DNA from: Rhizobium sp. Q54
GTDB lineage: Bacteria; Pseudomonadota; Alphaproteobacteria; UBA828
Direction: 5' to 3'
Assembly: GCA_945902735.1 (NCBI GenBank)
Contig: CAMDNF010000003.1
Location: 2,311 to 66,310, forward strand
Length of the DNA: 64,000 nucleotides
The translations under genes and the position numbers were made by a program. A model generated the notes under the pieces. That model did not search any database. It worked only from the letters and a program-made list of their open reading frames with translations, and had not been told where the DNA came from. Positions 13,131-64,000 of this stretch are shown here, in pieces (position 1 is the first letter of the stretch; the number at the start of each line of letters is the position of its first letter).

Positions 13131-13336
13131 CGCGGCCCCCGAGGCCTGTCCATTTTATTTTGCCGATCCACCCATTGTCGGGCGGCGGGTTCGGGCGACG
13201 CATTATGCCATAGGCCGGGCGGATGATGAAGGGCCCACGGACACCGATTTCCCAAGGAAACACGATGGTTTACGACCGAAGCCCGGTGAATTAGTGTGGC
13301 GCGGCGACATACGTGGGCGCGACCGTCTGCCGGGTC

Positions 13337-45943: not shown

Positions 45944-46009
45944 GCCTATTTCCGCCATAATCTTTGCCCACATTGTGTGGGCGCGGTCGGGTGGCAAAGG
46001 GTTAGGATC

Positions 46010-48466: not shown

Positions 48467-50364
48467 TAGTGCGCCGCCTGCTTGGTCGTTTCATCCGCGC
48501 GATATTCGGGCACCAGCGCGCTGATCAAGGCGAGCGTGCGCGGGGTTAGCCCTGCGCGCGCGGCGGCGCCGAGCTCGTCAACCTGGCGCGCCACCAGCGC
48601 CGCATCGAGCGGGCGAGAAATCGCGCGATACAAGCCGGGAAGGCCGGCCTCGCTTTGTCGCTCGCTGTCGTGAAACAAGGCCTCGTGCAGCTTTTCGCCG
48701 GCCCGAAGCCCGGTGAATTGAATCTTGATGTCGCGTTCCGGCTGGCGCCCCGCGAGGCGGATCATCTGGCGCGCAAGATCAGTAATCTTAATCGGCGTGC
48801 CCATGTCGAGCACGAAAATCGACGGCTCGTCTTCCTGCGCACCAAGCGCCGAGGCCTGTAGCACGAGCTCAACCGCCTCGCGCGTGGTCATGAAAAAGCG
48901 CGTGACGTCGGGGTGCGTCACGGTCAACGGCCCACCCGCCGCGATCTGGCGTTGGAACAAGGGCACCACCGAGCCTGACGAACCCAGCACATTGCCGAAG
49001 CGCACGGTCACGAAGTGCGTGCGCCGGCGCGCGTCGCGGTCAGCCCCCTTGGCCTGGCAATAGGATTCGGCGATGCGCTTGGTCGCGCCCATCACGCTCA
49101 AGGGGTCGACCGCCTTGTCGGTCGAGATCAACACCATGGCACTAATGCCGGCCTCGACGCAGGCATCGGCCACGTTCTTGGTGCCGATCACATTGGTCAG
49201 CACGCCCTCATTCGGGTTGTCCTCGACAATCGGCACGTGCTTGAGCGCGGCGGCATGGAACACGAGGTCGAGCCGTTCGCGGGCAAAGATGGCGTCGAGC
49301 CGCGCGCGTTCGCGCACATCGGCGATCAAGGCGGCGCGCGGCAGCGTCGGATGACTCGTCTGCAATTCGGCGTCAATCGAATAGAGGTTGAATTCCGAAT
49401 GATCGATCAACACGAGCCGCGCCGGACCATGAGAGGCGATCTGGCGCACGAGTTCGGCGCCGATCGTGCCGCCGGAACCGGTCACGCACACGCGCTTGTT
49501 TTGGATCAAGGCCTTCATGCCGGCGCGGTCGAGCACGGTCTGCGGCCGGCCCAACAAATCTTCGATCGCGATCGGCTTGATCTCGATCCCGTGCGCCTGA
49601 TCGGTTCTAAAATCGGTCAGGCGCGGCAGGCGGGTAAAGCTCAAGCCGAAGCCATCGGCGGCTTCAAGCATCGCGCGCACGCGCACAGGCGCGACACGTT
49701 CATCGGCGAGGATCAATCGTTGCGGCCGCAAACCCTGTCGCCTCAGCTTGCGCAAGGCGTCGGGCAGATTGTCGATCGTGCCGAACACCTTCACGCCGCG
49801 AATATGCAGCCCCAGCTTGCCCACGTCCTCATCCAGAAGCCCGACCACGCGATAACCGCTCGAGGCGCCGCTTGTGGTCGAGCGGATGAATTCATCGGCC
49901 GCCGCCCCGGCGCCAACCAGCAGCACCGGCACGCGCTTTCCCTCATTGCGTTCGAGAAGGCCCGACATGCCGCGCTCGACATAGGCGCGATAGGCAACAC
50001 GCGGCCCGATCAAGAGCACCAGAAGCAAAATCCAAATGATGATCAGGCTTGAGCGCGGGAAGGCTTCGAGCCGCGTGATCGCGAACAAGGCGGGCAGAAA
50101 AATCAAAACAACCAGACTGGCCGCCTTGATCAACTCGATCACATCGCGCAGCGACACATAGCGCCACAGCGAGCGGTAAATACGGGTGCGCCAAAACACG
50201 ACGGCCGCGATGCCGGCGAACATCAGCAGCCCTTCAAGCATGAACGGGCTCGATTCCTGCCAGAAATCGTCTAAACCACGACGCAGCAGAAGGCCGAGCA
50301 CGAACGCGCCGGCGGCCGTCAGCACATCATGGATGGCCACCACATAGGTGCGGTTCAAGCGCAC
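48466..50364 (-). CDS. membrane-anchored nucleotide-sugar 4,6-dehydratase/epimerase (CapD/WbpM/PglF family)
   Basis: N-terminal TM helices and two Rossmann regions ([13 protein letters not shown]; [18 protein letters not shown]); 632 aa. Confidence 0.85.
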
Positions 50365-50377
50365 GTCGAAAACCCCG

Positions 50378-51412
50378 TCAACGGTACTCCGAAATCTTTA
50401 GAGCGCGTGCAAAATACCACAGAAGCACGGCGACGATGAGCGCAGCGCCACCCAGCGAAGCGAGGGAGGAAATGGTGCCCGCGGTCGAAATAAAGGCGAG
50501 GCCGATCAGGCCAACATTGAAGAGGCAAATCCAAATCACCGTCGCCTTGTGGCTCATGCCGCTACGCACGGCGCGCTGATAGAAATGTTCCCGATGCGCC
50601 TGCCAGACCCTTTCGCCCCGCCTTAGCCGGAGCAAGAGCGTCAGCGTGGCATCGCCGAGATAATAGGCCGGCAGGATCAGCGCCGCGCCCCAATAGCCTT
50701 GGGTGGCGACTCCGAGCAATAGCCATCCCAACAAATAACCGAGCGGCACACTCCCGACATCGCCGAGAAAAATCCGCGCCGGCTGCCAGTTCCACACCAA
50801 AAAACCGACCGCGCCGCCAATCAACAGAAGGCCGATCGCGCCGAACGGAAAAAGGCCAGGCACGGCGAGCACCAAAATCACCAGCCCGGTGCCGATCGAG
50901 GCGGTCTCGGCGCCGGCCAGCCCATCGATACCGTCCATGAAATTGAACGCATTGATGAACCAGAGCCAGGCTGCCGCCGCGATGGCCCAATCCAGCCAAT
51001 GGGGCAGGGCGCCCTGAAAAATCAACCCCGGCGGAGGCAAGGTGAACAAGCCCACCACCACCCAGCCGAATTGGGCGGATAGCCGGGTCAACGGGCTCAA
51101 GCCCCGTCGATCGTCGATCCACGAGACCACGCCAAGCACGATCATGGCGGCAATCACCACCCAGCCCGCCGGATCGGCCGGCACGGTGTCGGTGATGATC
51201 AGCGCGGCGAAAGCCAAAATCAGCACCGCGACCAGCGCAAGGCCGGCCCCGCGCGGCGTTGGGGCGGTGTGGCTCGACCGCTCGCCCGGAATGTCCAACA
51301 TCGCGCGTTGGATCAATATCCGGCGCAGCCGCCCGATCAGGATCATGACGGCGGGCAGCGAGCAGGCGCCCGCCGCGGCCGCGATCAGCCATTGTTCGGC
51401 GCTTCCGATCAT
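50378..51412 (-). CDS. polyprenyl-phosphate hexosamine-1-phosphate transferase (MraY/WecA/WbpL family, GT4 membrane type)
   Basis: NAFNFMDGIDGLAG and LGDVGSVPLGYLLG are the MraY-like motifs; polytopic membrane protein. Confidence 0.8.
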   Translation of the reverse strand: MIGSAEQWLIAAAAGACSLPAVMILIGRLRRILIQRAMLDIPGERSSHTAPTPRGAGLALVAVLILAFAALIITDTVPADPAGWVVIAAMIVLGVVSWIDDRRGLSPLTRLSAQFGWVVVGLFTLPPPGLIFQGALPHWLDWAIAAAAWLWFINAFNFMDGIDGLAGAETASIGTGLVILVLAVPGLFPFGAIGLLLIGGAVGFLVWNWQPARIFLGDVGSVPLGYLLGWLLLGVATQGYWGAALILPAYYLGDATLTLLLRLRRGERVWQAHREHFYQRAVRSGMSHKATVIWICLFNVGLIGLAFISTAGTISSLASLGGAALIVAVLLWYFARALKISEYR

Positions 51413-51453
51413 CTCATTCCGCCCCGTCGCCGCTTTCGTTATGCTGACCCATT

Positions 51454-52158
51454 ATGACTCCATCGTCGTACCCCAGCGAACCCAAACCTAGCCAAGGCGA
51501 ACGCTCCGACCGCCGCGCGCGCTGGCATGCCTACTACAGCGAGAAGCGGATCGTCCATCAGTGGCTTCAGGTCGATCTACTGAAATCGCTCCCGGTCGCT
51601 AAGATACTTGAAATCGGGCCCTATTTGGGGGCGGTGACCGCGCTGTTGAGCAATGCCGGCTATCAAGTGACCACGCTCGATATCGAAGGCGATCGCCCCC
51701 GCCATGGCGCCGTCGGGCATATCCGCGCCGATGTGAGGCGTTTGGATATTGCTGCCCTTCAAGGCTTCGACGCGCTTCTTTGTTGCGAAACGCTTGAACA
51801 TTTGCCCTTTGCCGAGGTGCCGGGAGTCCTGGCGAATTTCCACGCCACAAACGCCCCCTATCTGATTCTTTCGATGCCTTATGAGGGGCCGCAACTCGGG
51901 CTCTCGCTCTACCTCAATTCGCACCGCTGGCCGCGCTTCAAATATTTCCACCGATTCCATTTTCGCCATCGCTTCCGGGCGCCCAACACCGATCTTTGGG
52001 AAAGTCATCGCTGGGAAATCGGCTATCGGGATTATCCGCTGCGTAAATTGCGCCGCGTGGTTGAGGCAGCGGGCTACAAAATCGTTCGGACAGAATTCAC
52101 CAGCGGCACGCGCTCGGTGTTTCTGGTCTGCCGGCGCGTGGATCACGCCCGGGCATAA
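51454..52158 (+). CDS. class I SAM-dependent methyltransferase
   Basis: KILEIGPYLGAVTALL (motif I), VTTLDIE, LLCCETLEHLP. Confidence 0.6.
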   Translation: MTPSSYPSEPKPSQGERSDRRARWHAYYSEKRIVHQWLQVDLLKSLPVAKILEIGPYLGAVTALLSNAGYQVTTLDIEGDRPRHGAVGHIRADVRRLDIAALQGFDALLCCETLEHLPFAEVPGVLANFHATNAPYLILSMPYEGPQLGLSLYLNSHRWPRFKYFHRFHFRHRFRAPNTDLWESHRWEIGYRDYPLRKLRRVVEAAGYKIVRTEFTSGTRSVFLVCRRVDHARA

Positions 52159-53858
52159 ACCGCGCGTTCGGTCGCGACATAATCGATGCGATCGTCTAAA
52201 AGCGCGCGCGCGCATTCGCCCGGCGTGTTGATGATCGGCTCCTCATGCACATTGAAGCTCGTATTGATCATCACCGGCAGGCCGGTCTGCGCCTTGAAGC
52301 GCGTGACGATGTCGTAATAGGTCGGGTTGACATGGCGTTCGATCAATTGCGGGCGCGCCGTGCCATCGACATGAACGACCGCGGGAATACGCGTCCGCCA
52401 TTCGTCACGCACCGCGCAGGTGATCGTCATGAAGCGAGCGGCATAGCGTGAGCCGGCCGGCAAATGAAACACCGAATCGGCGTCTTCCGCCACCACCACC
52501 GGCGCGAACGGCATGAACTCCGATCGCGCGAGGCGCTTATTGAGCGAATCATTGATGCCCGAATCAGCCGGCGAGCCGAGAATCGTGCGGGCACCGAGCG
52601 CGCGCGGGCCATATTCCATGCCCTTGGTATAGAGCGCGACCACCTTGCTCGCCGCGCATAACTCCGCGCTTAGTGACACGGGATCATCGCCGATCTTTTT
52701 GATACCGGGCGTCGCCCCAATCACCTCATCCGCCACCACGCCGAAATCGCGGCCAAGATAAAGGTGATCGAGCGGATAACGTCGCGCCAACCAGGGGCCG
52801 AGCCCATCGCGCTCCAAAAGAAACTGCAACACGCCACCCGCCGGCAGGCCCTGGTCGCTCATCGCCGGATAGACGAACACCTCATCGACACCCGCTTCTT
52901 CGGCGAGCCGCTGATTGAGCCGCACATTGGCGAACACGCCGCCGGCGAGGCCGAGCTTCTTCACCGGATGACGCGCGAGCAGGCGCTTGACCGATTGCAG
53001 AATGAAATGTTCGAGCGCGGCCTGGATAGAGGACGCCATGTCCTCGCGCGAGACACTCCGCGCGATCTCATCCATGAATCGTTTGAGCGCGGGATTGGAT
53101 TCGAAATCGCTTCTGATCTGGCCGTGATCGTCGACCGTGAAATGCGCCGCGATGCGGTCGAAGGCCGCCGGTCTGCCATAGGCCGCAAGGCCCGTGAGCT
53201 TGCCCTCATGGCGGTTGATTCGAAAGCCGAGCGCCTGGGTTGCATAGCCATAGGCGAGGCCGAGGCTATCGATCCGCATTGTGCGGGTGAGTTCGTCATT
53301 GCCGCCATAGAGCGTGTCGATTCGTCCGCCCTGAAAGACGCGATGGCTGTATTGCACATTATCGCCACCACCATCGGCGGTATAAAGCAGCGCCTCCGTC
53401 CAATCGGTGTGGAACAGGGTCGGCAGCGCATGGGCGAGGTGATGGTTGAAGAAGCGCACGCCACAATCGGCTCGGAATCCTTGCGCGGCGAGGAAGACGT
53501 CGTGACGGAAGATCGCCTCCGAATCGGTGCGCTTGGCGAGCATAAGCTCGCGCTCCATGCTCTTGTGCTTCTCAGCCCCGATCGCTTGGCGTACCAGCCC
53601 TTCGACCAAACGCCCGCCGCTGAAATGATTGTAATACCGCCAGGGGAAGGGGCCGCGGCCAAGCACCACCGCGTCGACCTTATCACGTGTAAGGCCGGCG
53701 ATCGCGAGGCACTCGTCAATCGCTTCATCGGGCACGCGACCGCCGTCGATCTTGCGGCGCGTCAAGCGTTCGAGCGCGACGGCCGCGATCATGCGGTAAT
53801 CGTCGAACAAACAGGCCGAGGCTTCGTGATAACCCGAGTGGACGCCGAGGATAAGCAT
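52143..53858 (-). CDS. carbamoyltransferase (NodU/CmcH family)
   Basis: MLILGVHSGYHEASACLFDDYRMIAAVALERLTRRK is the conserved N-terminus, with the C-terminal carbamoyltransferase domain; 571 aa. Confidence 0.85.
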   Translation of the reverse strand: MLILGVHSGYHEASACLFDDYRMIAAVALERLTRRKIDGGRVPDEAIDECLAIAGLTRDKVDAVVLGRGPFPWRYYNHFSGGRLVEGLVRQAIGAEKHKSMERELMLAKRTDSEAIFRHDVFLAAQGFRADCGVRFFNHHLAHALPTLFHTDWTEALLYTADGGGDNVQYSHRVFQGGRIDTLYGGNDELTRTMRIDSLGLAYGYATQALGFRINRHEGKLTGLAAYGRPAAFDRIAAHFTVDDHGQIRSDFESNPALKRFMDEIARSVSREDMASSIQAALEHFILQSVKRLLARHPVKKLGLAGGVFANVRLNQRLAEEAGVDEVFVYPAMSDQGLPAGGVLQFLLERDGLGPWLARRYPLDHLYLGRDFGVVADEVIGATPGIKKIGDDPVSLSAELCAASKVVALYTKGMEYGPRALGARTILGSPADSGINDSLNKRLARSEFMPFAPVVVAEDADSVFHLPAGSRYAARFMTITCAVRDEWRTRIPAVVHVDGTARPQLIERHVNPTYYDIVTRFKAQTGLPVMINTSFNVHEEPIINTPGECARALLDDRIDYVATERAVYARA

Positions 53859-54022
53859 TCGGGGCGGATAAACCGGGTAGGGCGATGAAGAACGGGCGGA
53901 CCCTAGAGCGGCGGCCTCGGATCGTCAATGCGAACGGTACGCGCCGCCGCGTCAATCTCTAGCCTCGGCGCCTTGCCGATGCTAAGGAGCACGCAGCAAA
54001 TGGCATTGAGCGGGGCAGGAAC

Positions 54023-55345
54023 GTGGCGGTCGCATCGACTTCCACCACAGCGAATCTAACGAGGCCTTGGCGCGCCATCCAGTTCATCAGCGCGGGCCTG
54101 CTCGGCATAGGCGTGCCATTGCTGGTGTCGGGTCCAAGCACCGAAGCGGTGGTGCTTGGCCTTGCGATCATTTTGGTCCTTGTGACGCCGGCACGCGGCG
54201 CCCTGTTGATCAATCTTGCCGAAACGTTGAAATCACCCATCGGCCTCACGCTGATGGCTGTTCTGGTCGCGTGGATTCCTTCCGTCGCTCTATCGCTCTC
54301 GCCGCTTCAATCGCTGGCGATTTGGGGCCGCTCAATCGGTCTCCTCATCGCAGCTTCATTGATCACATGTTTTCTGGTACGCAACTCGGGCGCGCGCGAT
54401 ATCGCGACGAAAGCCCTCGTGCTCGGCGCACTCGTTTGCGCGACTCTCGCACTGATCGGCTTGGCGGGCGGCTCGCCCGTGCTCGCACTAATTCGCGGCC
54501 TGCCGTTTGAATCGTTCGAGGTCGTCCATTTTCTCAAATACTACGCATCGGTGGCCGCCTGTCTGATGCCAGTGGTGTTGGTCCTTGGGCACAAACTCGG
54601 TGGCGCCTGGTGGCGGGCGGCATGGCTTTATCCACCCATGGCATTGTCGATCGTGCTCTTACTTAACAGCGGCGCCGGTGTCGTTGGTCTGGTCGCGGCG
54701 GTCGCAACCGGCGGATTAGCCTATTTTTCCGGCACACCGCGTTTGCGGCGGTTCTCGCTCGGCGGATTGGCGCTCCTGATCGGGCTTGGTCTCGTGGGTC
54801 TTGGCTCTATGTTTGCCCATGCGCCAGCGCCGCCACCGGCCGACCTGATCGTTGATGGCCGTTATGAAGGCTCCTTCGAAACCCCGCTGCCGCTTTGGTT
54901 GGTCGATGCGCACCGCCAGCAAATTTGGGGTTTTTCGCTCGATGCCGCGCTCAATCGGCCATGGTTCGGCTATGGGCTCGACCGCTCCAATTACATCCCC
55001 GGCGCGGATTTAATGCTCACCGAATTCAATCAAACGATTGTACCGGCGCATCCGCATAATTGGTTGATCGAGATCATAATCGACTCGGGGTTCATCGGTC
55101 TCGCCGCGCTTCTCGGTGTTGTTGGCGCCATCATCGCCCGATGGCTACAAATCGCGCGTCAAGATCTTAGTCTCGGCGCGGCGGGTCTGGGGCTTTGTGG
55201 CGCGTTCTTCACGTCGTCGCTGCTCAATTTCTCTTTTTGGACGACGTGGTGGCAAACCGTGTTTTTGGTGCTTAGCGCGATTCTAATGGCCCATGTGCCA
55301 CGCCGACTCGGCGCCGCGCCCGCCAATCCAGATAGGCGAGTATAA
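54023..55345 (+). CDS. O-antigen ligase family membrane protein (Wzy_C domain)
   Basis: Polytopic membrane protein with PHNWLIEIIIDSGFIGLAALLGVVG (the H..N...G..G motif of Wzy_C/WaaL). Confidence 0.65.
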   Translation: MAVASTSTTANLTRPWRAIQFISAGLLGIGVPLLVSGPSTEAVVLGLAIILVLVTPARGALLINLAETLKSPIGLTLMAVLVAWIPSVALSLSPLQSLAIWGRSIGLLIAASLITCFLVRNSGARDIATKALVLGALVCATLALIGLAGGSPVLALIRGLPFESFEVVHFLKYYASVAACLMPVVLVLGHKLGGAWWRAAWLYPPMALSIVLLLNSGAGVVGLVAAVATGGLAYFSGTPRLRRFSLGGLALLIGLGLVGLGSMFAHAPAPPPADLIVDGRYEGSFETPLPLWLVDAHRQQIWGFSLDAALNRPWFGYGLDRSNYIPGADLMLTEFNQTIVPAHPHNWLIEIIIDSGFIGLAALLGVVGAIIARWLQIARQDLSLGAAGLGLCGAFFTSSLLNFSFWTTWWQTVFLVLSAILMAHVPRRLGAAPANPDRRV

Positions 55346-56705
55346 CCATCGCAAGACCGAGTGCCGCCAATGGCTCGATCGGCAATCGGTATTTGGCCGA
55401 CGCGACCGGACCATTGACCAGCAGAACATAGCCTGCCCACAACACAAGAACCGCGAACGAGGCGCGCCAAAGGCGCGTTGACGCCGCGCCACGCGCGCGG
55501 ATGACCAAGCCGAGCCCAAACAGCTCGACCAGGCGAAACGCGATGGCGCCGAGGCCCGTCAAAATCATCACCCAGGCATAAATAGGGCTGTCATTGGCGA
55601 ACAGGAAATTTTTGATTTTTTCGCCTTTGGTTTCACCCGGCGCGCCAAAGAATCCGGTGCGCGGCAATTCACGCAAGGGTGGCGAAACCAGTGCGGCTGG
55701 GGAAAAGAGGTTGATAACGCCACCAATGATCCACGCTTTCGCAATGGCACCAACACCTAATTCGCCGAGGACTTCGCGACCGAGGGCATCGCGTTGCCGC
55801 GACGTCTCGAATGGATTGTCACTCGGCACGGGGTATAGGGCTTCGAAACGCGCTTCATTCTCGTGAGCGCCCTTTTCGTGACTCGTGCCGTCCGCCGCTT
55901 CACGCACCAATGGCGCGATCCAGAGCAGTGAGTGCGTACCGCCCTGACTGGTCAGATAGACTGAGCCATAGGTTCCGATATTGCGTGCAAAAATTGGTGC
56001 TTGCACGACCAAGCAGAGCAGCACGACCAAGGTCATGTGCGCGACGCTTAGACCAAACATACGATAATAGGCGTTCCATCGCGCACCGACGCCGTGCACG
56101 ACCAAAGCGAGGACAGGCAGCAACAGAGCGATCAGCGCCGTCCAGGGCAATAGCATCGTGCGGGTCGACACGCCGAGTCCAAGGGCCGCGCCAAGCACAA
56201 TCGCCGCCCGCCAATTTGGCGCGCGCAGCCAAAGGAGCGCGCCATAGAGCGCGAGACAGCAGAGCAGAAAAAACACGCTATCGTTCAAAATGAGAGCGCT
56301 GACGACCACTTGGGTTGGGTTCAAAGCGGCGACAAGGCCAGCCAACAACATGAGCCTGCGGTCGAAGAGCGCGGCGATACGCGCGATCAAAAGGCAGGCC
56401 AGCGCGTCCAACACACCCTGGGTTAGAGCCGGAAATAGCGGATCCGAGGTGCCGCTGATCACGCGATGGAGCGCGAGCCATATGACGTAGAGCGGCATTC
56501 GTTCGGTCTCAGGCACAATGCCGCCCTCAACCGGACGCACGAAATCGCCATAGCGAACAAAGATCTCGCCAAGGCTGAGATAGAGCCCCGAATCCTCACT
56601 CTGTAGACCCTCGGGCCCGGCCACCAAATACATGGCAATCGCGTAGGCGACCCTGAGCACCAGGGCGATACCAAAGATCAACCAAAGTGCGCGCGCCGTG
56701 CTCAT
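55272..56705 (-). CDS. ArnT/PMT-like (GT39/GT83-type) membrane glycosyltransferase
   Basis: 477 aa, multi-TM, N-terminal ALWLIFGIALVLRVAYAI...PETERMPLYVIWLAL in an ArnT-like arrangement. It overlaps the convergent ligase gene by about 74 nt. Confidence 0.55.
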   Translation of the reverse strand: MSTARALWLIFGIALVLRVAYAIAMYLVAGPEGLQSEDSGLYLSLGEIFVRYGDFVRPVEGGIVPETERMPLYVIWLALHRVISGTSDPLFPALTQGVLDALACLLIARIAALFDRRLMLLAGLVAALNPTQVVVSALILNDSVFFLLCCLALYGALLWLRAPNWRAAIVLGAALGLGVSTRTMLLPWTALIALLLPVLALVVHGVGARWNAYYRMFGLSVAHMTLVVLLCLVVQAPIFARNIGTYGSVYLTSQGGTHSLLWIAPLVREAADGTSHEKGAHENEARFEALYPVPSDNPFETSRQRDALGREVLGELGVGAIAKAWIIGGVINLFSPAALVSPPLRELPRTGFFGAPGETKGEKIKNFLFANDSPIYAWVMILTGLGAIAFRLVELFGLGLVIRARGAASTRLWRASFAVLVLWAGYVLLVNGPVASAKYRLPIEPLAALGLAMVILAYLDWRARRRVGVAHGPLESR

Positions 56706-57430
56706 GAGGCGCGCTCGAGCGCGATCAAGAGACGAAACGCCATAAAGCGACCGAGAAGCGGCATGAGGGCATCTTCAAGGCGAAGAAGAGGGCGAATGAG
56801 GCACAGCGGAATTAAGCCAAAGCGGCGATAGCCTCCCGATAAGGGATAGGCAAATAGGCTCAGCGTCCGTCGTTCGATCAGTTTGAGGCGCGGAAAACTT
56901 CGTTCGAAGCCGGCGCGCATTGGCCCGAATAAGAGACTGGGTATCGCTTGGTTGGCCGCATAGGGGTCGCGACCGGGTGTCGGCGCGCCGCCCATAAGCG
57001 GGTCGGCCGAAAGATCGACGGGTTCGTCGTGGAATAAGCGAAAGATCAAATGGCTGATCGGCGTGATGCCGGGTTCGATCATGACGAGCCGCCCCCCCGG
57101 TTTCAGCACGCGCTCGGCCTCGGCGAAGAACAACCGGGGACGCTCGACATGGTGCAGAACGTCGAGCATCACGATGTTGTCAAAACTCGCGGCCTTGAAT
57201 GGCAGAAGCTGCGCGTCCGCCACCACGTCGAGCCAGCCCGCGCTCTGAACGTCGCTCAAGATCACATCACCCAGGCACTCGCGCAACCAGCCCGTGCCCG
57301 CGCCGATCTCGAGCGTGCGGCCGGGCCGCGTGCGCTGCGCCATACGTCGGTAGTAATCGCTGTAGATCGCGCGCAAAGCGGGCTTGCCCTCCCACAGCGC
57401 ACGATGCGCAAGAAGGGTCGGCGCGCTCAA
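56702..57430 (-). CDS. class I SAM-dependent methyltransferase (Methyltransf_11-like)
   Basis: TLEIGAGTGWL, VILSDV, FDNIVMLDVLHHV and LKPGGRLVMIEP. Confidence 0.75.
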   Translation of the reverse strand: MSAPTLLAHRALWEGKPALRAIYSDYYRRMAQRTRPGRTLEIGAGTGWLRECLGDVILSDVQSAGWLDVVADAQLLPFKAASFDNIVMLDVLHHVERPRLFFAEAERVLKPGGRLVMIEPGITPISHLIFRLFHDEPVDLSADPLMGGAPTPGRDPYAANQAIPSLLFGPMRAGFERSFPRLKLIERRTLSLFAYPLSGGYRRFGLIPLCLIRPLLRLEDALMPLLGRFMAFRLLIALERAS

Positions 57431-57432
57431 GT

Positions 57433-58881
57433 CTAAAAAGCCTTAAGTTTACGAAAGGCAAAAAAGACCATGCGCAGCAGCATGAAGCCATGGCGGAAGC
57501 GTGAAATTTGGGTTGTGCCATAAAGCCGATCGGCATAGCGCACGGGCACTTCGATCAGCTTGAGGTTCAGCTTCGCCGCGCCGAATAGAAGATCGAAATC
57601 GCCAAACGGATCGAACTCTCCAAAATAGCCACGGTTCGCCGCAATGCGTTCGTAATGCGCCTTGGTCAACACCTTCGTGCCGCACAACGTGTCGGTGAAA
57701 CGTTGGTTCAACAGCCACGAAAACAGCGTCGAGAAAAACAGATTACCCACGAAATTCAACGGCCGCATGGCGCCGCGTTCCATGGGATAGATCAAACGAC
57801 TGCCATTGATAAACTCGCCTTTGCCCGAGACGATGGCGTGATAAAATTTCGGCAAAGCCTCCGGTGGCACGGTCAGATCGGCGTCTAGAATCATCAAGAG
57901 TTCGCCACGCGCCTGCGCGAAACCCTTGCGCACCGCATCGCCTTTGCCAACACCCTCCTGCACAAACACCTTGATGTCGCGCTCGGGATAGGCGGCCCGC
58001 ACGCGCTTCATTTCATCGAGCGTGCCGTCTCGGCTATGACCCTCGACAAAAACGATCTCGATGTCTTCGCAAAACGCTGGCAGGCGTTTAATGGCATTCT
58101 CGATATTGCCTTTTTCATTGCGCGCCGGAATGACAACCGAGGTCGAAAGTTTTTCATAGCCGGCGTGTCGCTTCGATCGCGCGACCAGATAGTGGCGCAG
58201 GCAAAGCCGGCGAATCACCGGCAAAGTCGCAATCGTGTGGTTGACCAACCAGCCGAGCCCGAACAGGGAATAAGGCATCAGCATCCGCCAGTCTCGCTTG
58301 ATCACTTCGAAATCGGTCAGCGCGAGCAAATTGGCGATGTCATCGGGGCCAAGGCGATTTTGCGGCGGCTGCGGCATTTTTAGACCGACGCGTTCCGCCA
58401 AGGCCACGAGCGGCTGCCAAAACCAAGAATAGTAAGCGATGATAAGGCGCATATCGCGGGCCGAAAGCGCGTGCAGCGAATCCAAGGTGGCTTCCACGTC
58501 GTCGAGCGCACCGATCGAATCGGAAATCACGATGGCATCATAGGGCCCGTCGAGCGCGGCAAGCGCGCCGACATCTTCCATATCGCCCACGATGAAGCGA
58601 AGTTCTGTATTGGCCTCCTCGGGGAATTTGCGCCGCGCCGCCTCGATCATGCCCGCGCTGATATCGATGCCGACACCGCGCGTCGGCTTTAGACCAGCAA
58701 GCTGTGCGCCAACGCCGCAGCCAAGCTCGAGCACCTTTTTGCCGGGCTCGATAAGGAAGCGCATCATGCGCTCGTCTTCGCTATGGAAATAGCGGCTCCG
58801 CGCTAGCCAACGCTCGCGCGACGGCGCCAGGCGGTCGCCGTGACGTTTCTGAGCGTCTTTTCGGTTGAGAATCTCTGGCAT
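57433..58881 (-). CDS. bifunctional methyltransferase / family-2 glycosyltransferase fusion
   Basis: N-terminal half has VLELGCGVGAQL...GIDIS...FIVGDMED (a SAM MTase). C-terminal half has LSTSVVIPARNEKGNI...LMILDADLTVPPE (a GT2 DXD region). Confidence 0.75.
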   Translation of the reverse strand: MPEILNRKDAQKRHGDRLAPSRERWLARSRYFHSEDERMMRFLIEPGKKVLELGCGVGAQLAGLKPTRGVGIDISAGMIEAARRKFPEEANTELRFIVGDMEDVGALAALDGPYDAIVISDSIGALDDVEATLDSLHALSARDMRLIIAYYSWFWQPLVALAERVGLKMPQPPQNRLGPDDIANLLALTDFEVIKRDWRMLMPYSLFGLGWLVNHTIATLPVIRRLCLRHYLVARSKRHAGYEKLSTSVVIPARNEKGNIENAIKRLPAFCEDIEIVFVEGHSRDGTLDEMKRVRAAYPERDIKVFVQEGVGKGDAVRKGFAQARGELLMILDADLTVPPEALPKFYHAIVSGKGEFINGSRLIYPMERGAMRPLNFVGNLFFSTLFSWLLNQRFTDTLCGTKVLTKAHYERIAANRGYFGEFDPFGDFDLLFGAAKLNLKLIEVPVRYADRLYGTTQISRFRHGFMLLRMVFFAFRKLKAF

Positions 58882-58997: not shown

Positions 58998-59495
58998 ATG
59001 CGGCACTGGTACGTTGTTCGCAGCCAACCCCACGCCGAGCGGCGCGCGCGCGACAGTTTGGAGCGCCAAGGCTTCGAGGCCTGGCTGCCACTTTGCCAAC
59101 GGCGGCGGCGCCATGCGCGCAAGATGGAGATCGTTTTGCGGCCGCTGTTCCCGCGCTATCTCTTCGTCGCGATCGACCTTGAGACCAAGCCTTGGCGCGC
59201 CATGCTATCGACCTTCGGCGTTGCTAGTGTGATCCAGGGGCCCAAGGGGCCGGTGCCGGTGCCTGAAGCCGTGATCGAGGGTTTGCGTGCACGGGCCGAT
59301 GCGGAAGGCGTGATTGATCGTGGGGCTGCTGACTATCAGGCCGGCGCCAAAATTCGCATCACCAGCGGGGCCTTTACCGACGTTGAAGGCATTTTTCAGG
59401 CACGCACCGACACCGAGCGGGTCGCGATTCTTCTGACCCTCATGGGTCACGCCGTTCGTGTCACGGTGCCGGAAGGAGATATCGAACCGGTCTGA
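58998..59495 (+). CDS. NusG-family paralog (RfaH/LoaP-like specialised antiterminator)
   Basis: MRHWYVVRSQPHAERRARDSLERQGFEAWLP...VLRPLFPRYLFV is an NGN domain; C-terminal KOW-like region GAKIRITSGAFTDVEGIF. Only 165 aa, diverged from housekeeping NusG. It lies divergent from the glycan operon. Confidence 0.7.
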   Translation: MRHWYVVRSQPHAERRARDSLERQGFEAWLPLCQRRRRHARKMEIVLRPLFPRYLFVAIDLETKPWRAMLSTFGVASVIQGPKGPVPVPEAVIEGLRARADAEGVIDRGAADYQAGAKIRITSGAFTDVEGIFQARTDTERVAILLTLMGHAVRVTVPEGDIEPV

Positions 59496-59513
59496 ACAAC
59501 GGGGGGCGAAACC

Positions 59514-60347
59514 ATGAATATTGAGCAAAGCATAGCCGCTCACTATGGCGATGAGACCTTTGGCAAAAGGCTGCTTGAGGCGCTCTCGGCCTCCGGCCTC
59601 GATATCAATCGGCTCAGCCCTGATGAGCTTGCTCCGATCGATGAATTTCATATTGGTGGTCGGCTGGCCACGGCTGAACTCGCCGCGCAGCTCGGCCTTC
59701 GCCCCGGTCTGAAACTGCTCGATGTCGGCAGCGGTATCGGTGGGCCCGCGCGTTATCTCGCCCACGCATTTGGTTGCGAGGTGATCGGCATCGACCTGAC
59801 CGAGGCGTTTGTTCGCATCGCGACCGATCTAACGCGGCGTGCCAGCCTGTCCAATAGAGTGAAGTTCCAACAAGGTAGCGCGCTCGATTTACCATTCGAG
59901 GCGGCGAGTTTCGATGGTGCGACGATGTTGCACGTCGGCATGAACATCGACGACAAACCGAGACTATGTCGCGCGGTCCGGAAGGTGCTACGCCCCGGCG
60001 CATTTTTCGGTATTTACGATTTGATGCGCATGGGCCCGGGCTATATCGAATTTCCGGTACCTTGGTCGAGCCGGCCCGAGACCAGTTTTGTGGTCGAGCC
60101 GAGCGCCTATCGCGCGGCGCTCGAGGCTGCGGGGTTCACGCTCTCTAAGGAACGCAATCGGCGCGATTTTGCCCTCGATTTCTTTCGCGACATGCAGGCC
60201 AAGGCCAAAGCGGCGGGCGGCGGCGCTTCGCCGCTCGGCCCCGCTTTGATCATGGGGCCTGAGTTCAAGGATAAGCTTCGCCACGTGGTCGAGGCGATCG
60301 AACGGGGCGCGATCGCGCCGATCGAATTGATCGCGCGTGTGCCCTGA
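59514..60347 (+). CDS. class I SAM-dependent methyltransferase
   Basis: LKLLDVGSGIGGPARYLA, VIGIDLT, FDGATMLHVGMNI. Confidence 0.75.
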   Translation: MNIEQSIAAHYGDETFGKRLLEALSASGLDINRLSPDELAPIDEFHIGGRLATAELAAQLGLRPGLKLLDVGSGIGGPARYLAHAFGCEVIGIDLTEAFVRIATDLTRRASLSNRVKFQQGSALDLPFEAASFDGATMLHVGMNIDDKPRLCRAVRKVLRPGAFFGIYDLMRMGPGYIEFPVPWSSRPETSFVVEPSAYRAALEAAGFTLSKERNRRDFALDFFRDMQAKAKAAGGGASPLGPALIMGPEFKDKLRHVVEAIERGAIAPIELIARVP

Positions 60348-60356: not shown

Positions 60357-61523
60357 TTAGGTTTCCGCCAGAAACGCCTTGAAACGTTGCGCCACCTCGA
60401 ACGGTTTGATGGTTGGGCGGCCGAGCTTTGCCATCGAGCCCGGTGCGATGCGAACGTGGAGTAAAGCCGGCTTCGGCCCGGCGAGCGCGTCCTCGAAGGC
60501 ACGCTCGAAGCCAGCGAGGCTCTCGCACACATAAGCGCGCTCATAGCCGCACGCCGCCGCGATTTCGGTGAACGATACCGAGGACGAGACGGTGGCTTGC
60601 CCGCCGGTTGAATCATGCGTGCCATTGTCGAGTACAATGTGAGTCAAGTTTGGCGGCGCATAGGTGCCGATCGTAGCGAGATTGCCCATCTTCATCAACG
60701 CGGCGCCATCGCCATCGAGCACCATCACGGGGCGCGCGGTATTGAGCGCGACACCCAAGCCCATCGCGCTCGCGCCGCCCATCGAGCCAACCTGATAAAG
60801 CTGCTGTTTGCGGTCCATCAGCGTGAACAATTCGCGCCCGCATTTTCCCGTGGTCGCGATCACCGCGGCGTCTGGTGGCACGCGTCGTAGGAAACGCTCG
60901 AGCACAGCGGCCCGCATCGGTCGCTCGCCGCGTTCGCTCAAATCGAGCGTGGTGCCGGGTGGTCGCTCGGGCGGCGGGCCCTGATTGAGCCCATCATCGA
61001 CCACCGTGTCTTTTTCCATCACGAAGGCGAAGGGCAAGCCCGATTCCGCCATCCATTCGCCCGCTTGATCGAGCGCCGGGCCGATCAGCCGCGCCTCAGA
61101 TGGAAACGCCGCATGAGGAACCCGCATCAGCTCGAGCAGATCCTGCGTGATCTCACCCATCAGCTCATGCTGCGGCTCGTCATTGAGGCCTGGCTGACCG
61201 CGCCATGTGACGATCATGAGTGTCGGAATACGAAACGGAAAATTCAACGAGGTGAGTGGATTGACCGTGTTGCCGAGGCCGGAGCTCTGGCACATCACCA
61301 CCGTCTTCCGCCCGGCTAAATGCGCGCCGGCGGCGATCGCAACCGCCTCCCCCTCCGATGTCGCGCCGACATAGCGCGTCAAAGGATCGGAGATCACGCG
61401 ATTGATCAGCGGCGTCAGGAAGGAGCACGGCACGCCGGTGAAAAAATCGAAACCGCGCTCACGCGCAGGAATCAGAAAATCATCGGCGGAGATCATATCG
61501 GGCGTCGTCCATGTTGCGCCCAA
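60357..61523 (-). CDS. thiamine-diphosphate-dependent decarboxylase of the phosphonopyruvate/sulfopyruvate decarboxylase family (probable phosphonopyruvate decarboxylase)
   Basis: About 388 aa with fused Pyr (GFDFFTGVPCSFLTPL) and PP domains. The TPP motif GDGAALMKMGNLATIGTYAPPNLTHIVLDNG (GDG-X25-N) is present; size and architecture match Ppd. Confidence 0.6.
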   Translation of the reverse strand: MGATWTTPDMISADDFLIPARERGFDFFTGVPCSFLTPLINRVISDPLTRYVGATSEGEAVAIAAGAHLAGRKTVVMCQSSGLGNTVNPLTSLNFPFRIPTLMIVTWRGQPGLNDEPQHELMGEITQDLLELMRVPHAAFPSEARLIGPALDQAGEWMAESGLPFAFVMEKDTVVDDGLNQGPPPERPPGTTLDLSERGERPMRAAVLERFLRRVPPDAAVIATTGKCGRELFTLMDRKQQLYQVGSMGGASAMGLGVALNTARPVMVLDGDGAALMKMGNLATIGTYAPPNLTHIVLDNGTHDSTGGQATVSSSVSFTEIAAACGYERAYVCESLAGFERAFEDALAGPKPALLHVRIAPGSMAKLGRPTIKPFEVAQRFKAFLAET

Positions 61524-61524
61524 T

Positions 61525-62352
61525 TCAGCGAGCGGCCGCCGGTTTCAGAGTAAAGGCGGCAAGACGCGTCGCTTCATTATATGCCATGTTCTTGCGCAGC
61601 GTTTCGGTATGAAGCTCCATATCAAATCCATAACGATCGGCGAGATTGCGAAAATGGTTGGTGCTATGCCACCAATCATGCGACCCCATGCGATCGACCA
61701 ACCGATTCGGATCTTTTTCCGAATAGGTGAAAAAGAAGACGGTCTTATCATGCATGATCTTCGGCACGTTCTTCATGACGTCTTCGATGTCACGCTCGGG
61801 CATATGCATGAAAATGGCGAAACACCAAATGTAATCGGCTTTCCGACCCTTCAACCAGTCGAAGGAATTATCCTTGTTGACAATGACAAGAAATTTGTCG
61901 GTCTCGATGCCCTTTTCCTGCTTCAAATAGTCGAGGCCCTTACGAATCCGCCCGCCGCTCGCGTCATTGCCCGAAAAGCTTCCGCTCGTCAGATAGGGCA
62001 CCAAGAAGCCGGCCACCCGACCCATCCCCAAGCCAAATTCATGGACGGCATGATGCGGCTGCACGCCAAGCGCCTTAATGACATTGAATTGCTCGCGCCC
62101 GTCCTCCATGTACTTCCGAAATTTTTCGCGCCGTTCCGGCGACTCGACGGTGGTGAAGTCATCCAACCGGCGCGCATACCACTCGAGATAGCTCACCCCG
62201 CGCAATCGGCTCAAGCAAAGGTTTAGATCCTCAAGGGGCTTCTGAATCCAGCGCCCGCGCACCGAACTATGGTCGCCGCGTAACCAAAGAACGACGCGAC
62301 TGGGAAGAACGGCGCGGAAGAAAGCCGCGATGCCATCGAAAAGGGAGCCCAT
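61525..62352 (-). CDS. SAM-dependent methyltransferase-like protein, markedly low GC
   Basis: HEFGLGMGRVAGFL (a glycine-rich motif I), ...KFLVIVNKD. GC is visibly lower (about 50%) than neighbouring genes. Confidence 0.5.
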   Translation of the reverse strand: MGSLFDGIAAFFRAVLPSRVVLWLRGDHSSVRGRWIQKPLEDLNLCLSRLRGVSYLEWYARRLDDFTTVESPERREKFRKYMEDGREQFNVIKALGVQPHHAVHEFGLGMGRVAGFLVPYLTSGSFSGNDASGGRIRKGLDYLKQEKGIETDKFLVIVNKDNSFDWLKGRKADYIWCFAIFMHMPERDIEDVMKNVPKIMHDKTVFFFTYSEKDPNRLVDRMGSHDWWHSTNHFRNLADRYGFDMELHTETLRKNMAYNEATRLAAFTLKPAAAR

Positions 62353-62385
62353 CAGTTTGGTTCCGTGTCTCTATTGAGGTTGAAT

Positions 62386-63225
62386 CTATGACCGCATGAT
62401 TTGGCGACCGGCCCACCGACGCCAACGTTGCGTCAGCGCCTCATGGGTCGGTTCGCCACGATAAAGATCGGGATGCTCGAGTGTCGTCATTTCGCTCGGA
62501 TCGTCCAGAGCGTGCTTGGCGAAAAACACGATCAAGCGGCTGCGCCCCGTGACAAATACCTGGCCGCGCCAGGCGTAAGGGGTCGGGCCGAGCAAGCGCG
62601 CAATCGACACGCGCCGCGCGCTCATCGGTTCGACGCGGATCTTTTCGATATTCGGCAGACCAACAAGTTCGATGTTGACTAGGCCCGGACGGTGATAGGG
62701 GTTGATCAAGACAATCGATTCATCCGCGTTTGCGTCAGGGTCGACACCGCAACAGGGGTAGCCCGCGCACCACGCGCCTAGTTCACGAACCTGATTGATC
62801 GTCACCGGATCGCCGAACTTTATCGCATTGTCGTTGAAAAAGGTTTTGCGCCTCGGGCCGCTGAACAACGTGTAGTTCGCGGCGGGTTGATTGGTCGAGA
62901 ACCCGCCCGGCGAAGCGACCGCCAATTCAAGCTCCCAATAGGACAATTCCGTTCCTCCATCCCAATCGGCCTTCCCGTCATCGTCGATCGTGATGACCCA
63001 TTCTTGAATCGACGAGCGAGGACCATCGAATTGGATTTCGGCTGTTCGGGTCACGATTTCGGCGCCATTCCGCCACAAGCGATGGGTCGCCTGAACGTGC
63101 GCCGATCGGGTCGTCAGGCGATCCCGAATCGAGGCGATCGGTAGCGCGTAGGTCACCCTATAGCCGGGCGGTGGGCCAAGACCCACGGCGGGCAGCAGAT
63201 AGGAAAAACTCGGCACGGCACTCAA
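62386..63225 (-). CDS. hypothetical protein (no recognisable family)
   Basis: 279 aa ORF in an operon with the Ppd-like gene. Contains CAGYPCCGVDPD; no family motifs recognised. Confidence 0.45.
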   Translation of the reverse strand: MSAVPSFSYLLPAVGLGPPPGYRVTYALPIASIRDRLTTRSAHVQATHRLWRNGAEIVTRTAEIQFDGPRSSIQEWVITIDDDGKADWDGGTELSYWELELAVASPGGFSTNQPAANYTLFSGPRRKTFFNDNAIKFGDPVTINQVRELGAWCAGYPCCGVDPDANADESIVLINPYHRPGLVNIELVGLPNIEKIRVEPMSARRVSIARLLGPTPYAWRGQVFVTGRSRLIVFFAKHALDDPSEMTTLEHPDLYRGEPTHEALTQRWRRWAGRQIMRS

Positions 63226-64000
63226 ATGTGGTGCAGCGAGATGCGCGGCGGATCGCCCGCGGCCACCATGGCGTGGGTGCGTACCATACGATCTGACTTG
63301 AGCGAGGCAATAAGCGGTCTCGCCGTATCGTCTGCGCCTTTCGGCAGCTCAAGTTCAACAAGGGCTGCGCCATATGGCGCCAATGACAACTGGCGTCGCA
63401 TAATCTCCTCGTTGCCGCGCACGGCCTGAATTTGGATCGAAGCCGGCTCCTGCTCACAATTCACCACGCTCAAATACTGCGTCTCGCCCCGTGGCGGCAC
63501 TGCCGTTCGCACAAACGAAGTGCGCCGACCATTGCCTTGCGAGTGTACGGTGCTAAGGGAACACTTCGTCTTAATCGTGAAATGCGGTCGGATCGACCCG
63601 CGAAAGCCCTCGCTAAGCGCAATCATCGACATCCGGCACTGCCCGGTCGACAGACCGGCCGAGCCAATCGGGCCCGTGATTTCATGATCCAACCGTTCGC
63701 CGGGCGCTAGCGTTCTGGTAATCAAATCGATCCGTCGTCCGTCCGCGTCGTGAATATCGAACCGCACGGCAAAATGCGGCGAACGCGGCCCAATCGATTG
63801 CGAGACCGAGTTCGCGACACTCGCAATCGTGCTGACACCATCGCCCGTCAAAATCGGAACGATCCCTCGGAGCGGAACCGCTACACGCGGCGATATCCGA
63901 TCAAGCCAGTCATAGATGATTCGTTTCGCGCTCCGCCTTTCGGCGCGGTTGTTTTTGCTAGATTTGTTCCCCCTTGCCGCCGAATGCCGAGAGGTTTCGT
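63222..64000 (-). CDS. hypothetical protein, 5' end beyond the window (open to position 64000)
   Basis: The reading frame stays open upstream of the listed TTG to the window edge (...KRIIYDWLDRISPRVAVPLRGIVPILTGDGVSTIAS...). ATGA overlap with the downstream gene. Confidence 0.45.
   Translation of the reverse strand, partial: ETSRHSAARGNKSSKNNRAERRSAKRIIYDWLDRISPRVAVPLRGIVPILTGDGVSTIASVANSVSQSIGPRSPHFAVRFDIHDADGRRIDLITRTLAPGERLDHEITGPIGSAGLSTGQCRMSMIALSEGFRGSIRPHFTIKTKCSLSTVHSQGNGRRTSFVRTAVPPRGETQYLSVVNCEQEPASIQIQAVRGNEEIMRRQLSLAPYGAALVELELPKGADDTARPLIASLKSDRMVRTHAMVAAGDPPRISLHHI

Follow-up and report, generated by a model that had tools for sequence, protein, structure and literature searches.

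The window analysed here, a stretch of 64,000 nucleotides from an uncultured freshwater alphaproteobacterium, carries the 3′ four-fifths of a five-gene phosphonate operon on the minus strand. The order of genes in the operon is ppm-NT fusion, A, B, MT, and ppd (Table 1), and the four co-directional open reading frames of the window lie where a first-pass annotation had placed them. The Ppm-NT/Ppd core is known; what is new, and unusual, is the A-B gene pair together with MT between ppm and ppd, without a known enzyme for the next step. We consider it probable that the phosphonate made by this operon decorates the glycan of the surrounding O-antigen-type locus and that A-B-MT is a cassette for redox and methyl tailoring.

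The window was extended with the metagenome contig L001, which is 100% identical to it over 11,615 nt, and with a second contig, L008, which is 99.94% identical. This completes A, which had been noted as a gene running off the window edge. A and B, described earlier as two unknown proteins, indeed have no Pfam or NCBIfam family. The genes of the operon are translationally coupled, with the 4 nt overlap of A and B and gaps of 28–74 nt elsewhere. A second lineage, whose A protein is 59% identical, retains this order of all five genes; across the two lineages, identity is 59–79%.

Table 1. Features of the phosphonate operon and of the adjoining glycan locus, in window coordinates.
Feature	Position	Strand	Remarks
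ppm-NT	64301-65971 (window-equivalent)	-	Next gene upstream of A; heads operon; beyond base 64000
A	63222..64000 in window; whole gene 63222-64226 (window-equivalent)	-	334 aa, of which the C-terminal 259 in window
B	62386..63225	-	279 aa; undescribed family; start overlaps stop of A by 4 nt
MT	61525..62352	-	275 aa; class-I SAM-methyltransferase-like; third member of the A-B-MT cassette
ppd	60357..61496	-	379 aa; fused alpha/beta TPP enzyme; last operon gene
Methyltransf_11 methyltransferase	59514-60347	+	PF08241 matched
RfaH-like antiterminator	58998-59495	+	TIGR01955 E 1e-36, below cutoff; PF02357 NusG matched
Remainder of O-antigen-like glycan locus	48466..58881		Pfam and NCBIfam scans
MT-GT2 fusion	57433-58881
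Methyltransferase	56702-57430
PMT_2-like GT-C	55272-56705
Wzy_C	54023-55345
NodU-like carbamoyltransferase	52143-53858
Methyltransferase	51454-52158
WecA-like GT4	50378-51412
PseB/WbpM-like dehydratase	48466-50364

The first-pass annotation reported that PEP mutase was absent and that unknown proteins occupied its place. The motif EDKxxxxxNS, which sets Ppm apart from the rest of the isocitrate-lyase superfamily, does not occur in a six-frame translation of the window itself, so the first statement holds for the window, but not beyond it. The gene for PEP mutase heads the same operon, and its apparent lack is an artefact of the window edge. On L001 the motif reads EDKLFPKTNS. Full-length Ppm on L008 passes the equivalog cutoff of TIGR02320 (393.7 against 319.55), and the fragment ended by the L001 contig end scores 300.8. 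Ppm also matches PF13714, and Mytilus PEP mutase (1m1b) at 402 bits. C-terminal to Ppm is an NTP_transf_3 domain (PF12804, E 6.8e-13) that resembles LicC (1jyk, E 7e-11). Extension of the contig, which had been proposed as a way to find either the motif or a cytidylyltransferase, thus revealed both in one protein. Judged by sequence, NT is a LicC/PntC-type nucleotidyltransferase fused to PEP mutase; its nucleotide is probably CMP, with nucleotide and substrate specificity predicted from knowledge of the family. Among Ppm architectures, the fusion to PF12804 is more frequent than any other and makes up 33% (PMC6697681).

The identification of the last gene as ppd, a fused TPP enzyme, was borne out. 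Its product scores 422.9 bits against TIGR03297 (equivalog cutoff 312.5), with residues 24–385 aligned to model positions 1–360 of 360; the L011 orthologue reaches 431.6 and that of L026 428.7. Both TPP_enzyme_N (PF02776) and TPP_enzyme_C (PF02775) are matched, the GDG...N TPP motif is readable in the translation (LDGDGAALMKMGN...LDNGTHDSTGGQ), and the nearest solved structure is a split phosphonopyruvate decarboxylase (9iz3). Although the reading frame extends as far as a TTG at 61523, gene calls on identical contigs favour the ATG at 61496 as its likely start. The sulfopyruvate alternative raised in the first pass, in which the protein is a ComDE-type or other 2-oxoacid decarboxylase of a non-phosphonate pathway, draws on the homology of these families; the ComD and ComE models match the ppd product at E 2e-27 and 1e-37. 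However, these scores are far under the cutoffs of the sulfopyruvate models (95.8 against 147.95 for TIGR03845 and 129.5 against 221.5 for TIGR03846), whereas the Ppd model is passed by 110 bits. Moreover, contigs that match the window at 100% or 99.9% identity show ppd in one operon with a bona fide PEP mutase, three genes away at its head. The alternative is therefore extremely improbable and effectively already refuted. With Ppm-NT and a genuine Ppd, the operon therefore encodes the conversion of PEP to phosphonopyruvate and then phosphonoacetaldehyde, together with nucleotidyl activation, probably with CMP. Decoration of cell surfaces with phosphonate has Ppm, Ppd, and nucleotidyl activation as its standard core.

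The RfaH-like and Methyltransf_11 genes (58998..60347) are convergent with ppd and belong to the glycan locus, outside the operon. GC3 in this locus is 0.67–0.74 versus 0.80 in the flanking purH. An O-antigen-like glycan is presumably what the phosphonate decorates, and family knowledge suggests that the activated C2 phosphonate would be transferred to the glycan built by these flanking genes. The Wzy, GT, WecA-like, PseB-like, and RfaH genes of the locus, together with the uncharacterised proteins of the operon, fit an idea already put forward in the first pass, a phosphonate-decorated glycan with novel tailoring enzymes. No LicD-like or other known phosphonyl transferase was identified in the glycan locus. 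A close comparison is with the phosphonyl-tailoring (Pnt) clusters known for phosphonates of the cell surface (Rice et al., 2019, PMC6697681), which resemble the operon in having Ppm with EDKxxxxxNS and a C-terminal NTP_transf_3 fusion, as well as Ppd in the operon and a glycan-biosynthesis setting. The operon differs from them in that it contains neither a 2-aminoethylphosphonate (AEP) transaminase nor a recognised LicD-like transferase and in that three unrelated genes split ppm from ppd.

The step after phosphonoacetaldehyde would be encoded by no known branch-point enzyme nearby. In neither lineage (L006, L008, and L011) do the genes called within ~10 kb include an aminotransferase, Fe-ADH, or aldehyde dehydrogenase, and MpnS/HEPD is absent from the same three neighbourhoods. 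Likewise, Pfam and NCBIfam scans found no aminotransferase between 48 and 64 kb of the window. The sole aminotransferase gene in the window (Aminotran_3) is 40 kb away, beside a Peptidase_C26 gene. Marine methylphosphonate and hydroxyethylphosphonate clusters contain Ppm, Ppd, Fe-ADH, MpnS/HEPD, a nucleotidyltransferase, and sulfatase-family proteins. They share the Ppm-NT and Ppd core with the operon, which differs in having no Fe-ADH, MpnS/HEPD, or sulfatase-family gene. With no known branch-point enzyme within ~10 kb, the operon falls into the "post-Ppd other" class of Li and Horsman (2022, PMC8942020). Such neighbourhoods have Ppm and Ppd with none of the seven known branch-point enzymes, and one of them, Clostridium GCF 599, has a methyltransferase and sugar enzymes nearby, as does the operon. 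The parts of the article consulted make no mention of the A-B pair.

MT is methyltransferase-like, as annotated earlier, although weakly so for Pfam. Its matches to Methyltransf_12, Methyltransf_23, and Methyltransf_25 are weak and all below cutoff (22.9 bits for Methyltransf_12, cutoff 30), and its homologues carry precomputed matches to PF08242/PF13649. Motif I and other class-I residues are present, and hEFGxGxxR, SGNDxS, and DNSFDW are invariant across 10 homologues. MT also has a conserved N-terminal extension of ~95 aa. The best solved relative, phosphoethanolamine N-methyltransferase PMT-2 (4ine), is a weak match (E 1.6e-4). The family is rare, with only 11 clusters in 5.8e9 proteins. 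Its orthologues (42–48% identity) adjoin A-B in clusters without ppm. MT belongs to the A-B cassette, and the genes with which its family is associated are A-B and not ppm.

These features bear on whether the operon serves ordinary AEP decoration. If so, an aminotransferase from elsewhere in the genome, PhnW-type or promiscuous, would act on phosphonoacetaldehyde to give AEP, AEP would be CMP-activated by NT, MT might N-methylate AEP, as had been suggested in the first pass, and A-B would be unrelated glycan-tailoring passengers. The LicC-like NT domain and the weak resemblance of MT to PMT-2 are in keeping with this. In addition, 56% of ppm neighbourhoods lead to AEP (Li and Horsman, 2022, PMC8942020), and characterised PF12804 PntC enzymes prefer AEP (PMC6697681). 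However, both lineages are without an aminotransferase in or near the operon, the one in the window being remote and beside Peptidase_C26, and the MT family accompanies A-B rather than ppm. We regard AEP decoration as possible, though not likely.

A and B form an obligate gene pair of a rare family with no Pfam model; in 44 of the 46 loci, A is the gene immediately upstream of B. At its N-terminus A has a Bfd-like [2Fe-2S] domain, which a basic linker joins to two beta-sandwich domains. Its four cysteines, in the pattern C-x-C...C-x-x-C, are invariant in 43 of 43 sequences. The N-terminus matches Bfd by sequence profile (E 6e-5) and also by fold, and A of the window lineage scores 19.5 against PF04324, under the gathering cutoff of 26. 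The likeness to Bfd lies in the four-Cys ligand pattern; A differs in carrying ~220 aa of beta-sandwich fused to this domain and in having another protein as its partner. B is all-beta; its C-terminal part carries the motif (E/D)-H-x-(D/E)-x-(F/Y)-R...T-H, after which comes a basic helix. The His-x-Asp motif of this tail is invariant, and H238, H251, and E/D250-x-x-D253 are conserved. Besides the four cysteines, many His, Asp, Glu, and Arg residues are invariant in A and B, and the conserved His and carboxylate residues of A and of the B tail suggest a second metal site.

Neither A nor B showed a recognisable catalytic fold in Pfam, NCBIfam, PDB sequence, or fold comparisons. Beyond Bfd, their only structural resemblance is to the beta-sandwiches of ASRAH/TM1070, which are predicted ligand-binding domains. 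The AF2 models compared are of moderate quality (pLDDT 67), with the most conserved motifs of B modelled at low confidence. At the sequence level there is no Pfam match to ASRAH even at E ≤ 1 and no PDB sequence match. Candidates for the hallmark Asn of ASRAH, which follows strand 2 of the eight-stranded beta-sandwich, are plausibly conserved (N139 and N256 in A and N175 in B) and would be comparably placed to the invariant Asn of the Anabaena sensory rhodopsin transducer/TM1070 family, which has been linked to sugar metabolism (De Souza et al., 2009, PMC2739507). A and B differ from that family in being much larger and in having extra conserved motifs and, in A, the Fe-S domain. Because ASRAH domains are proposed small-molecule or sugar sensors and no catalytic domain was detected, A-B might be a non-enzymatic ligand-binding or regulatory Fe-S complex, such as a redox- or iron-sensing sugar-binding scaffold or a chaperone for capsule or glycan assembly. 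The basic linker of A and the basic C-terminal helix of B are compatible with such a role. Against it are the placement of A and B, translationally coupled, in biosynthetic operons, the many invariant residues other than cysteine, and the group-transfer enzymes that frequently precede or follow them. We judge it unlikely.

Most A-B(-MT) loci are in nonulosonic-acid or capsule clusters without ppm, and clusters for sialic-acid-like sugars are where MT is normally found. The adjoining gene varies and can be the cassette methyltransferase, another methyltransferase, or a sulfotransferase; APS kinase genes are also found near some A-B loci. The three inserted genes, A-B-MT, would accordingly seem to be a separate mobile tailoring cassette. 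Two additional, independent loci, L026 and L063, also have ppm near A-B. The former has ppm next to ppd, with A-B at a distance of 5.5 kb. L063, a locus of the marine type, has its own TIGR03405-like Fe-ADH and an MpnS/HEPD-like enzyme (6b9s, E 5e-74). From these two loci it follows that A-B coexists with different phosphonate end-products.

This distribution weighs on the idea that A-B-MT supplies the missing branch-point chemistry, acting on phosphonopyruvate, phosphonoacetaldehyde, or CMP-phosphonate to yield, with no part played by the canonical aminotransferase or dehydrogenases, a novel C2/C3 phosphonate that is hydroxylated and/or methylated. Consistent with that idea, the cassette separates ppm from ppd, which are neighbours as a rule, in an order conserved in two lineages; the genes are coupled, known branch-point enzymes are missing nearby, the closest solved relative of MT, if weakly matched, acts on phosphoethanolamine, and ppm is found again in L026 and L063. 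By contrast, most A-B loci have neither ppm nor ppd, A-B lies apart from an adjacent ppm-ppd pair in L026, and L063 already has next-step enzymes of its own. We find branch-point chemistry doubtful.

Our best guess remains that A-B-MT carries out a redox and methyl tailoring step, and for its substrate in the operon we lean, with some conviction, toward a glycan or sugar over the phosphonate. A-B would be a redox enzyme made of two subunits, probably with hydroxylase or oxidase activity, in which the Bfd-type [2Fe-2S] domain of A may serve in electron transfer. It could act on a head group or sugar that is nucleotide-activated or derived from a 2-keto acid, and the new group would then be capped by the variable partner, a methyltransferase here and a sulfotransferase elsewhere. 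The idea of a hydroxylase comes from analogy and from the nature of the neighbouring genes. CMP-Neu5Ac hydroxylase and NamH are Rieske-type N-acetyl-sugar hydroxylases that act on nucleotide sugars, and KdoO is a Kdo 3-hydroxylase. The analogy, which we take as a lead only, is that these use iron or Fe-S oxidation on nucleotide-activated or 2-keto-3-deoxy sugar acids in clusters of the same kind; no sequence or fold relationship of A or B to the three enzymes was found. A bolder version is that A-B and MT constitute a tailoring enzyme of a new kind, with two subunits and dependent on [2Fe-2S], whose substrates are head groups of the cell surface that are CMP-activated or derived from 2-keto acids, and that it replaces the canonical post-Ppd branch-point enzymes here. 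This is speculative and rather doubtful. If true, the O-antigen would bear a previously undescribed hydroxylated and/or methylated phosphonate, and the same A-B enzyme would modify nonulosonic acids in ~160 other lineages.

The base composition of MT had been read as a sign of horizontal acquisition, with ~50% GC against a background of 64%. The values are 54.0% for the gene and 61.4% for the window mean, with 49% in the lowest 400-nt stretch at MT. GC3 of MT (0.667) equals that of its neighbours (0.656 in A, 0.689 in B, and 0.667 in Wzy). It is codon positions 1 and 2 that account for the deficit, which orthologues of other genomes show as well; the low GC of MT thus reflects amino-acid composition, not a separate transfer.

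The first-pass annotation had described a phosphonopyruvate decarboxylase (Ppd) gene in an operon with no PEP mutase visible in the window and with unknown proteins in its usual place. What was observed does exist, but the headline is a boundary artefact of the window and holds no interest in itself. Within the window, the EDKxxxxxNS motif was absent from all six frames, and Pfam scans of about 45 ORFs gave no PEP_mutase and no Aminotran_5, with an Aminotran_3 protein as the sole aminotransferase. Exact-sequence look-up of the 279-aa protein B, an all-beta protein of the operon, led to L001, a metagenome contig that agrees with the window in each of the 11,615 shared bases and extends 1,693 nt past base 64000. 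Protein A, which has an N-terminal Bfd-like 2Fe-2S domain, is complete on L001. The gene next upstream encodes ...VDGDTGYG...CIEDKLFPKTNSF..., matches PF13714 PEP_mutase (E 7e-41) and carries a PF12804 nucleotidyltransferase domain at its C-terminus. A second contig, L008, with 99.94% identity to the window, supplies this fusion (ppm-NT) in full; the full-length protein passes TIGR02320 (393.7 bits versus 319.55), gives 402 bits against Mytilus PEP mutase, and has a second domain that matches LicC (E 7e-11). Looking past base 64000 for pepM or a cytidylyltransferase, as had been proposed, thus located a PEP mutase and a LicC-like domain in one protein. The operon therefore reads ppm-NT, A, B, MT (a class-I SAM-methyltransferase-like protein) and ppd, with gaps in that order of 74, –4, 33–60 and 28 nt. 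As a comparison, the Ppm-PF12804 fusion is the commonest single Ppm architecture, at 33% of Ppm proteins (PMC6697681), so this part of the operon is ordinary.

Four ORFs run in the same direction on the minus strand between 60357 and 64000. The ppd product contains both the N- and C-side TPP-binding domains and scores 422.9 bits on the NCBIfam phosphonopyruvate decarboxylase equivalog model (cutoff 312.5), while falling far under the cutoffs of both sulfopyruvate decarboxylase subunit models. The original Ppd call thus holds, and the sulfopyruvate-type pathway offered beside it was dropped on these curated cutoffs. In MT, as in its homologues, the glycine-rich motif I is intact and further invariant features of class I are present. 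A and B belong to no Pfam or NCBIfam family, in agreement with their earlier listing as unknown proteins. MT had also been taken for a low-GC gene that was likely acquired horizontally. Its GC content is indeed under that of the window (54.0% versus 61.4%), but at third codon positions it does not differ from A, B, Wzy and the rest of the glycan genes (GC3 0.667); the deficit sits in codon positions 1 and 2, and this pattern is repeated in orthologues from two other genomes. The low GC thus reflects protein composition, and on GC3 we discarded a separate transfer of MT. The glycan locus as a whole has a lower GC3 than the housekeeping genes on its flanks (0.80 in purH), which is common in loci of this kind.

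Coordinates of features in the window and on related contigs (window numbering unless a contig is named)
Feature	Position	Strand	Remark
ppd	ORF 60357-61523; probable ATG start 61496	minus	379 aa; start as called on identical contigs
MT	61525-62352	minus	275 aa; sub-threshold methyltransferase matches
B			279 aa
A	63222-64226 (equivalent, from L001)		334 aa
ppm-NT			556 aa (L008)
B variant W271*	L008 ~9938; ~62415		TGG to TAG
ops/JUMPStart core	L008 6165-6176; ~66177-66188 (equivalent)	minus (L008)	exact GGCGGTAGCGTG
RfaH paralogue	58998-59495	plus
Aminotran_3 protein	21014-22411
SBP_bac_5, split	1380-2201 and 2220-3365	minus	one ORF covers profile positions 1-194, the other 217-353
Glycosyltransferase cluster	7770-16021		separate from the glycan locus
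ELFV-type glutamate dehydrogenase	39450-40883	minus	477 aa
Large NAD-specific glutamate dehydrogenase	40940-45943	plus	1667 aa
eCIS_core ORF	45977-46636	plus	219 aa; E 5e-8
A-B with sulfotransferase	L019 8986-15113
A-B locus with methylphosphonate/HEP-type set	L063 668-8942
Two A-B pairs	L066 3-1526 and 8842-10840		375-kb contig
CTP_transf_3-aminotransferase fusion	L007 5148-7190; L094 16719 onward

The surrounding locus is O-antigen-like. Between 48.4 and 59 kb it encodes a PseB/WbpM-like dehydratase, a WecA-like GT4, a carbamoyltransferase, Wzy_C, a PMT_2-like GT-C, an MT-GT2 fusion, several methyltransferases and the RfaH paralogue. Outside the window, an operon divergent from ppm encodes a 291-aa unknown protein, an FkbM-type methyltransferase, an AsnB-like amidotransferase, a VimE-like deacetylase and GFO-type sugar 3-dehydrogenases. 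Such a setting is consistent with decoration of the cell surface by phosphonate, on which most bacterial phosphonate capacity is spent, and a phosphonate-decorated glycan was one of the two options raised at first pass. We also considered an RfaH ops site ahead of the ppm operon. No exact site was found for that operon itself; the sole exact copy of GGCGGTAGCGTG belongs to the other strand and stands in the divergent operon's leader, about 220 nt upstream of that operon.

The operon is one for phosphonate decoration, and it is unusual in having no recognisable post-Ppd enzyme. The operon recurs, at 95–99% protein identity, in an alphaproteobacterial MAG from Lake Baikal, and a second lineage, in a MAG labelled Rhizobium sp. 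Q54, keeps the gene order with 59% (A), 71% (B) and 79% (MT) identity. Among the genes called within about 10 kb of the operon, none in either lineage encodes an aminotransferase, an Fe-alcohol dehydrogenase or an aldehyde dehydrogenase. Since no known branch-point enzyme, that is, one acting after Ppd, lies within this distance, we placed the operon in the ‘post-Ppd other’ class. PMC8942020 gives about 13% as the share of ppm neighbourhoods that have no known branch-point enzyme or pathway, of which this class is a part. The operon is a compact, testable case of such neighbourhoods. The phosphonate could be plain AEP, produced by a transaminase whose gene lies in another part of the genome, though we hold this to be less likely than not. 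Phosphonates make up a major share of aquatic organic phosphorus.

A second unusual feature is the undescribed Fe-S pair and methyltransferase between ppm and ppd. A word-indexed search of 5.8 billion proteins returned only 6 (B), 7 (A) and 11 (MT) clusters, and by this type of search only 4 of 185,579 species genomes were positive for the cassette proteins. With an exhaustive profile search the B family came to 166 representative clusters, all of about 270–290 aa. When metagenomes were scanned with a profile built from a 27-sequence alignment, A was directly upstream of B in 44 of the 46 B genes with enough upstream sequence. Homologues of A and B at 33–41% identity occur in MAGs of Rhodospirillaceae and on numerous metagenome contigs, accompanied by NeuB, PseB-like dehydratases, DegT aminotransferases, CTP_transf_3 cytidylyltransferases, KpsS-like proteins, ABC exporters and acetyltransferases. 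Neither ppm nor ppd was found in these NeuB/PseB-type clusters. The MT family adjoins A-B in some of them, after B or before A (42–48% identity in L002 and L013), and elsewhere the neighbour is another methyltransferase or a sulfotransferase. Two more independent loci have ppm close to A-B. In L026, a ppm-NT (71% identical) adjoins ppd and both are 5.5 kb from A-B. L063 is a cluster of the methylphosphonate/HEP type that encodes a homologue of MpnS/HEPD (E 5e-74 to 6b9s) as well as a phosphonate-type Fe-ADH. Because A-B keeps company with both ppm-free clusters and different ppm loci, the cassette is not dedicated to one phosphonate. MT, A and B are a cassette of their own, one that is at home in nonulosonic-acid and capsule biosynthesis. 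The probabilities we attach to its role are rough; they overlap and do not add up to one. We give an even chance to the tailoring of a sugar or glycan; action on the phosphonate itself seems unlikely.

Several A-B loci have further features. In L019 and L020, A-B is followed by a sulfotransferase in the stead of MT and then by DUF2172/DUF4910 proteins; in other loci APS kinase genes adjoin A-B. In L063 the Fe-ADH is fused to APS kinase, there is a second NT besides Ppm-NT, and a sulfatase-family protein is directly upstream of A. L066 has two separate A-B pairs about 9 kb apart in one cluster. Fusion of a CTP_transf_3 cytidylyltransferase to a class-III aminotransferase is seen repeatedly among A-B loci and has a parallel in the nucleotidyltransferase-aminotransferase fusions that phosphonate clusters are known to carry.

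All 43 of 43 A sequences have four invariant cysteines (C-x-C...C-x-x-C), and H228, H333, E72, D109 and R213 are also invariant. In B the invariant residues are H238, H251, E/D250, D253 and R256. Candidate ligands are C29, C31, C64, C67, H228 and H333 in A, and H238, H251 and D253 in B. The motif (E/D)H-x-D-x-(F/Y)-R...T-H of B belongs to a C-terminal tail, poorly modelled by AlphaFold, after which comes a basic helix. Near-identical population variants (L008, L009, L010) carry a stop, W271*, that drops the last 9 residues of this helix. A and B are not obvious paralogues: hhalign gave nothing with shallow alignments and, with deep ones, a weak match of B 171–241 to A 252–327 (E 1e-3, probability 14–20%). 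That match puts the invariant asparagines of both in register, and hints at kinship without proving it. No full-length relative of A or B was found in the PDB by sequence or structure. Our literature search found no paper joining nonulosonic-acid clusters to a 2Fe-2S protein, and Acker et al. (PMC8931226) do not discuss these neighbours. The pair is an unnamed, structurally unmatched Fe-S protein family of nonulosonic-acid and capsule loci in uncultured freshwater and marine bacteria. Anatomy and neighbourhood lead us to read A-B as a heteromeric Fe-S metalloprotein and, most plausibly, as a redox enzyme. That its methyl- or sulfotransferase partner varies suggests that A-B would make or unmask a nucleophilic group, which the partner would then cap. 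A non-catalytic role, such as ligand binding by A-B, is improbable in our estimation. Once known, the function of A-B would supply a missing step in surface-glycan chemistry and perhaps in phosphonate chemistry too.

Elsewhere in the window, two consecutive ORFs in an operon for an oligopeptide ABC transporter each encode part of one family-5 solute-binding protein; a frameshift, a pseudogene or an error in sequencing could account for the split. Two glutamate dehydrogenase genes are back to back, and a solitary ORF with an eCIS_core domain, near which no further contractile-injection-system genes were seen, lies between the larger of them and purH. The second glycosyltransferase cluster encodes two Glyco_tran_28_C proteins, two GT1 enzymes and an 843-aa ABC exporter.
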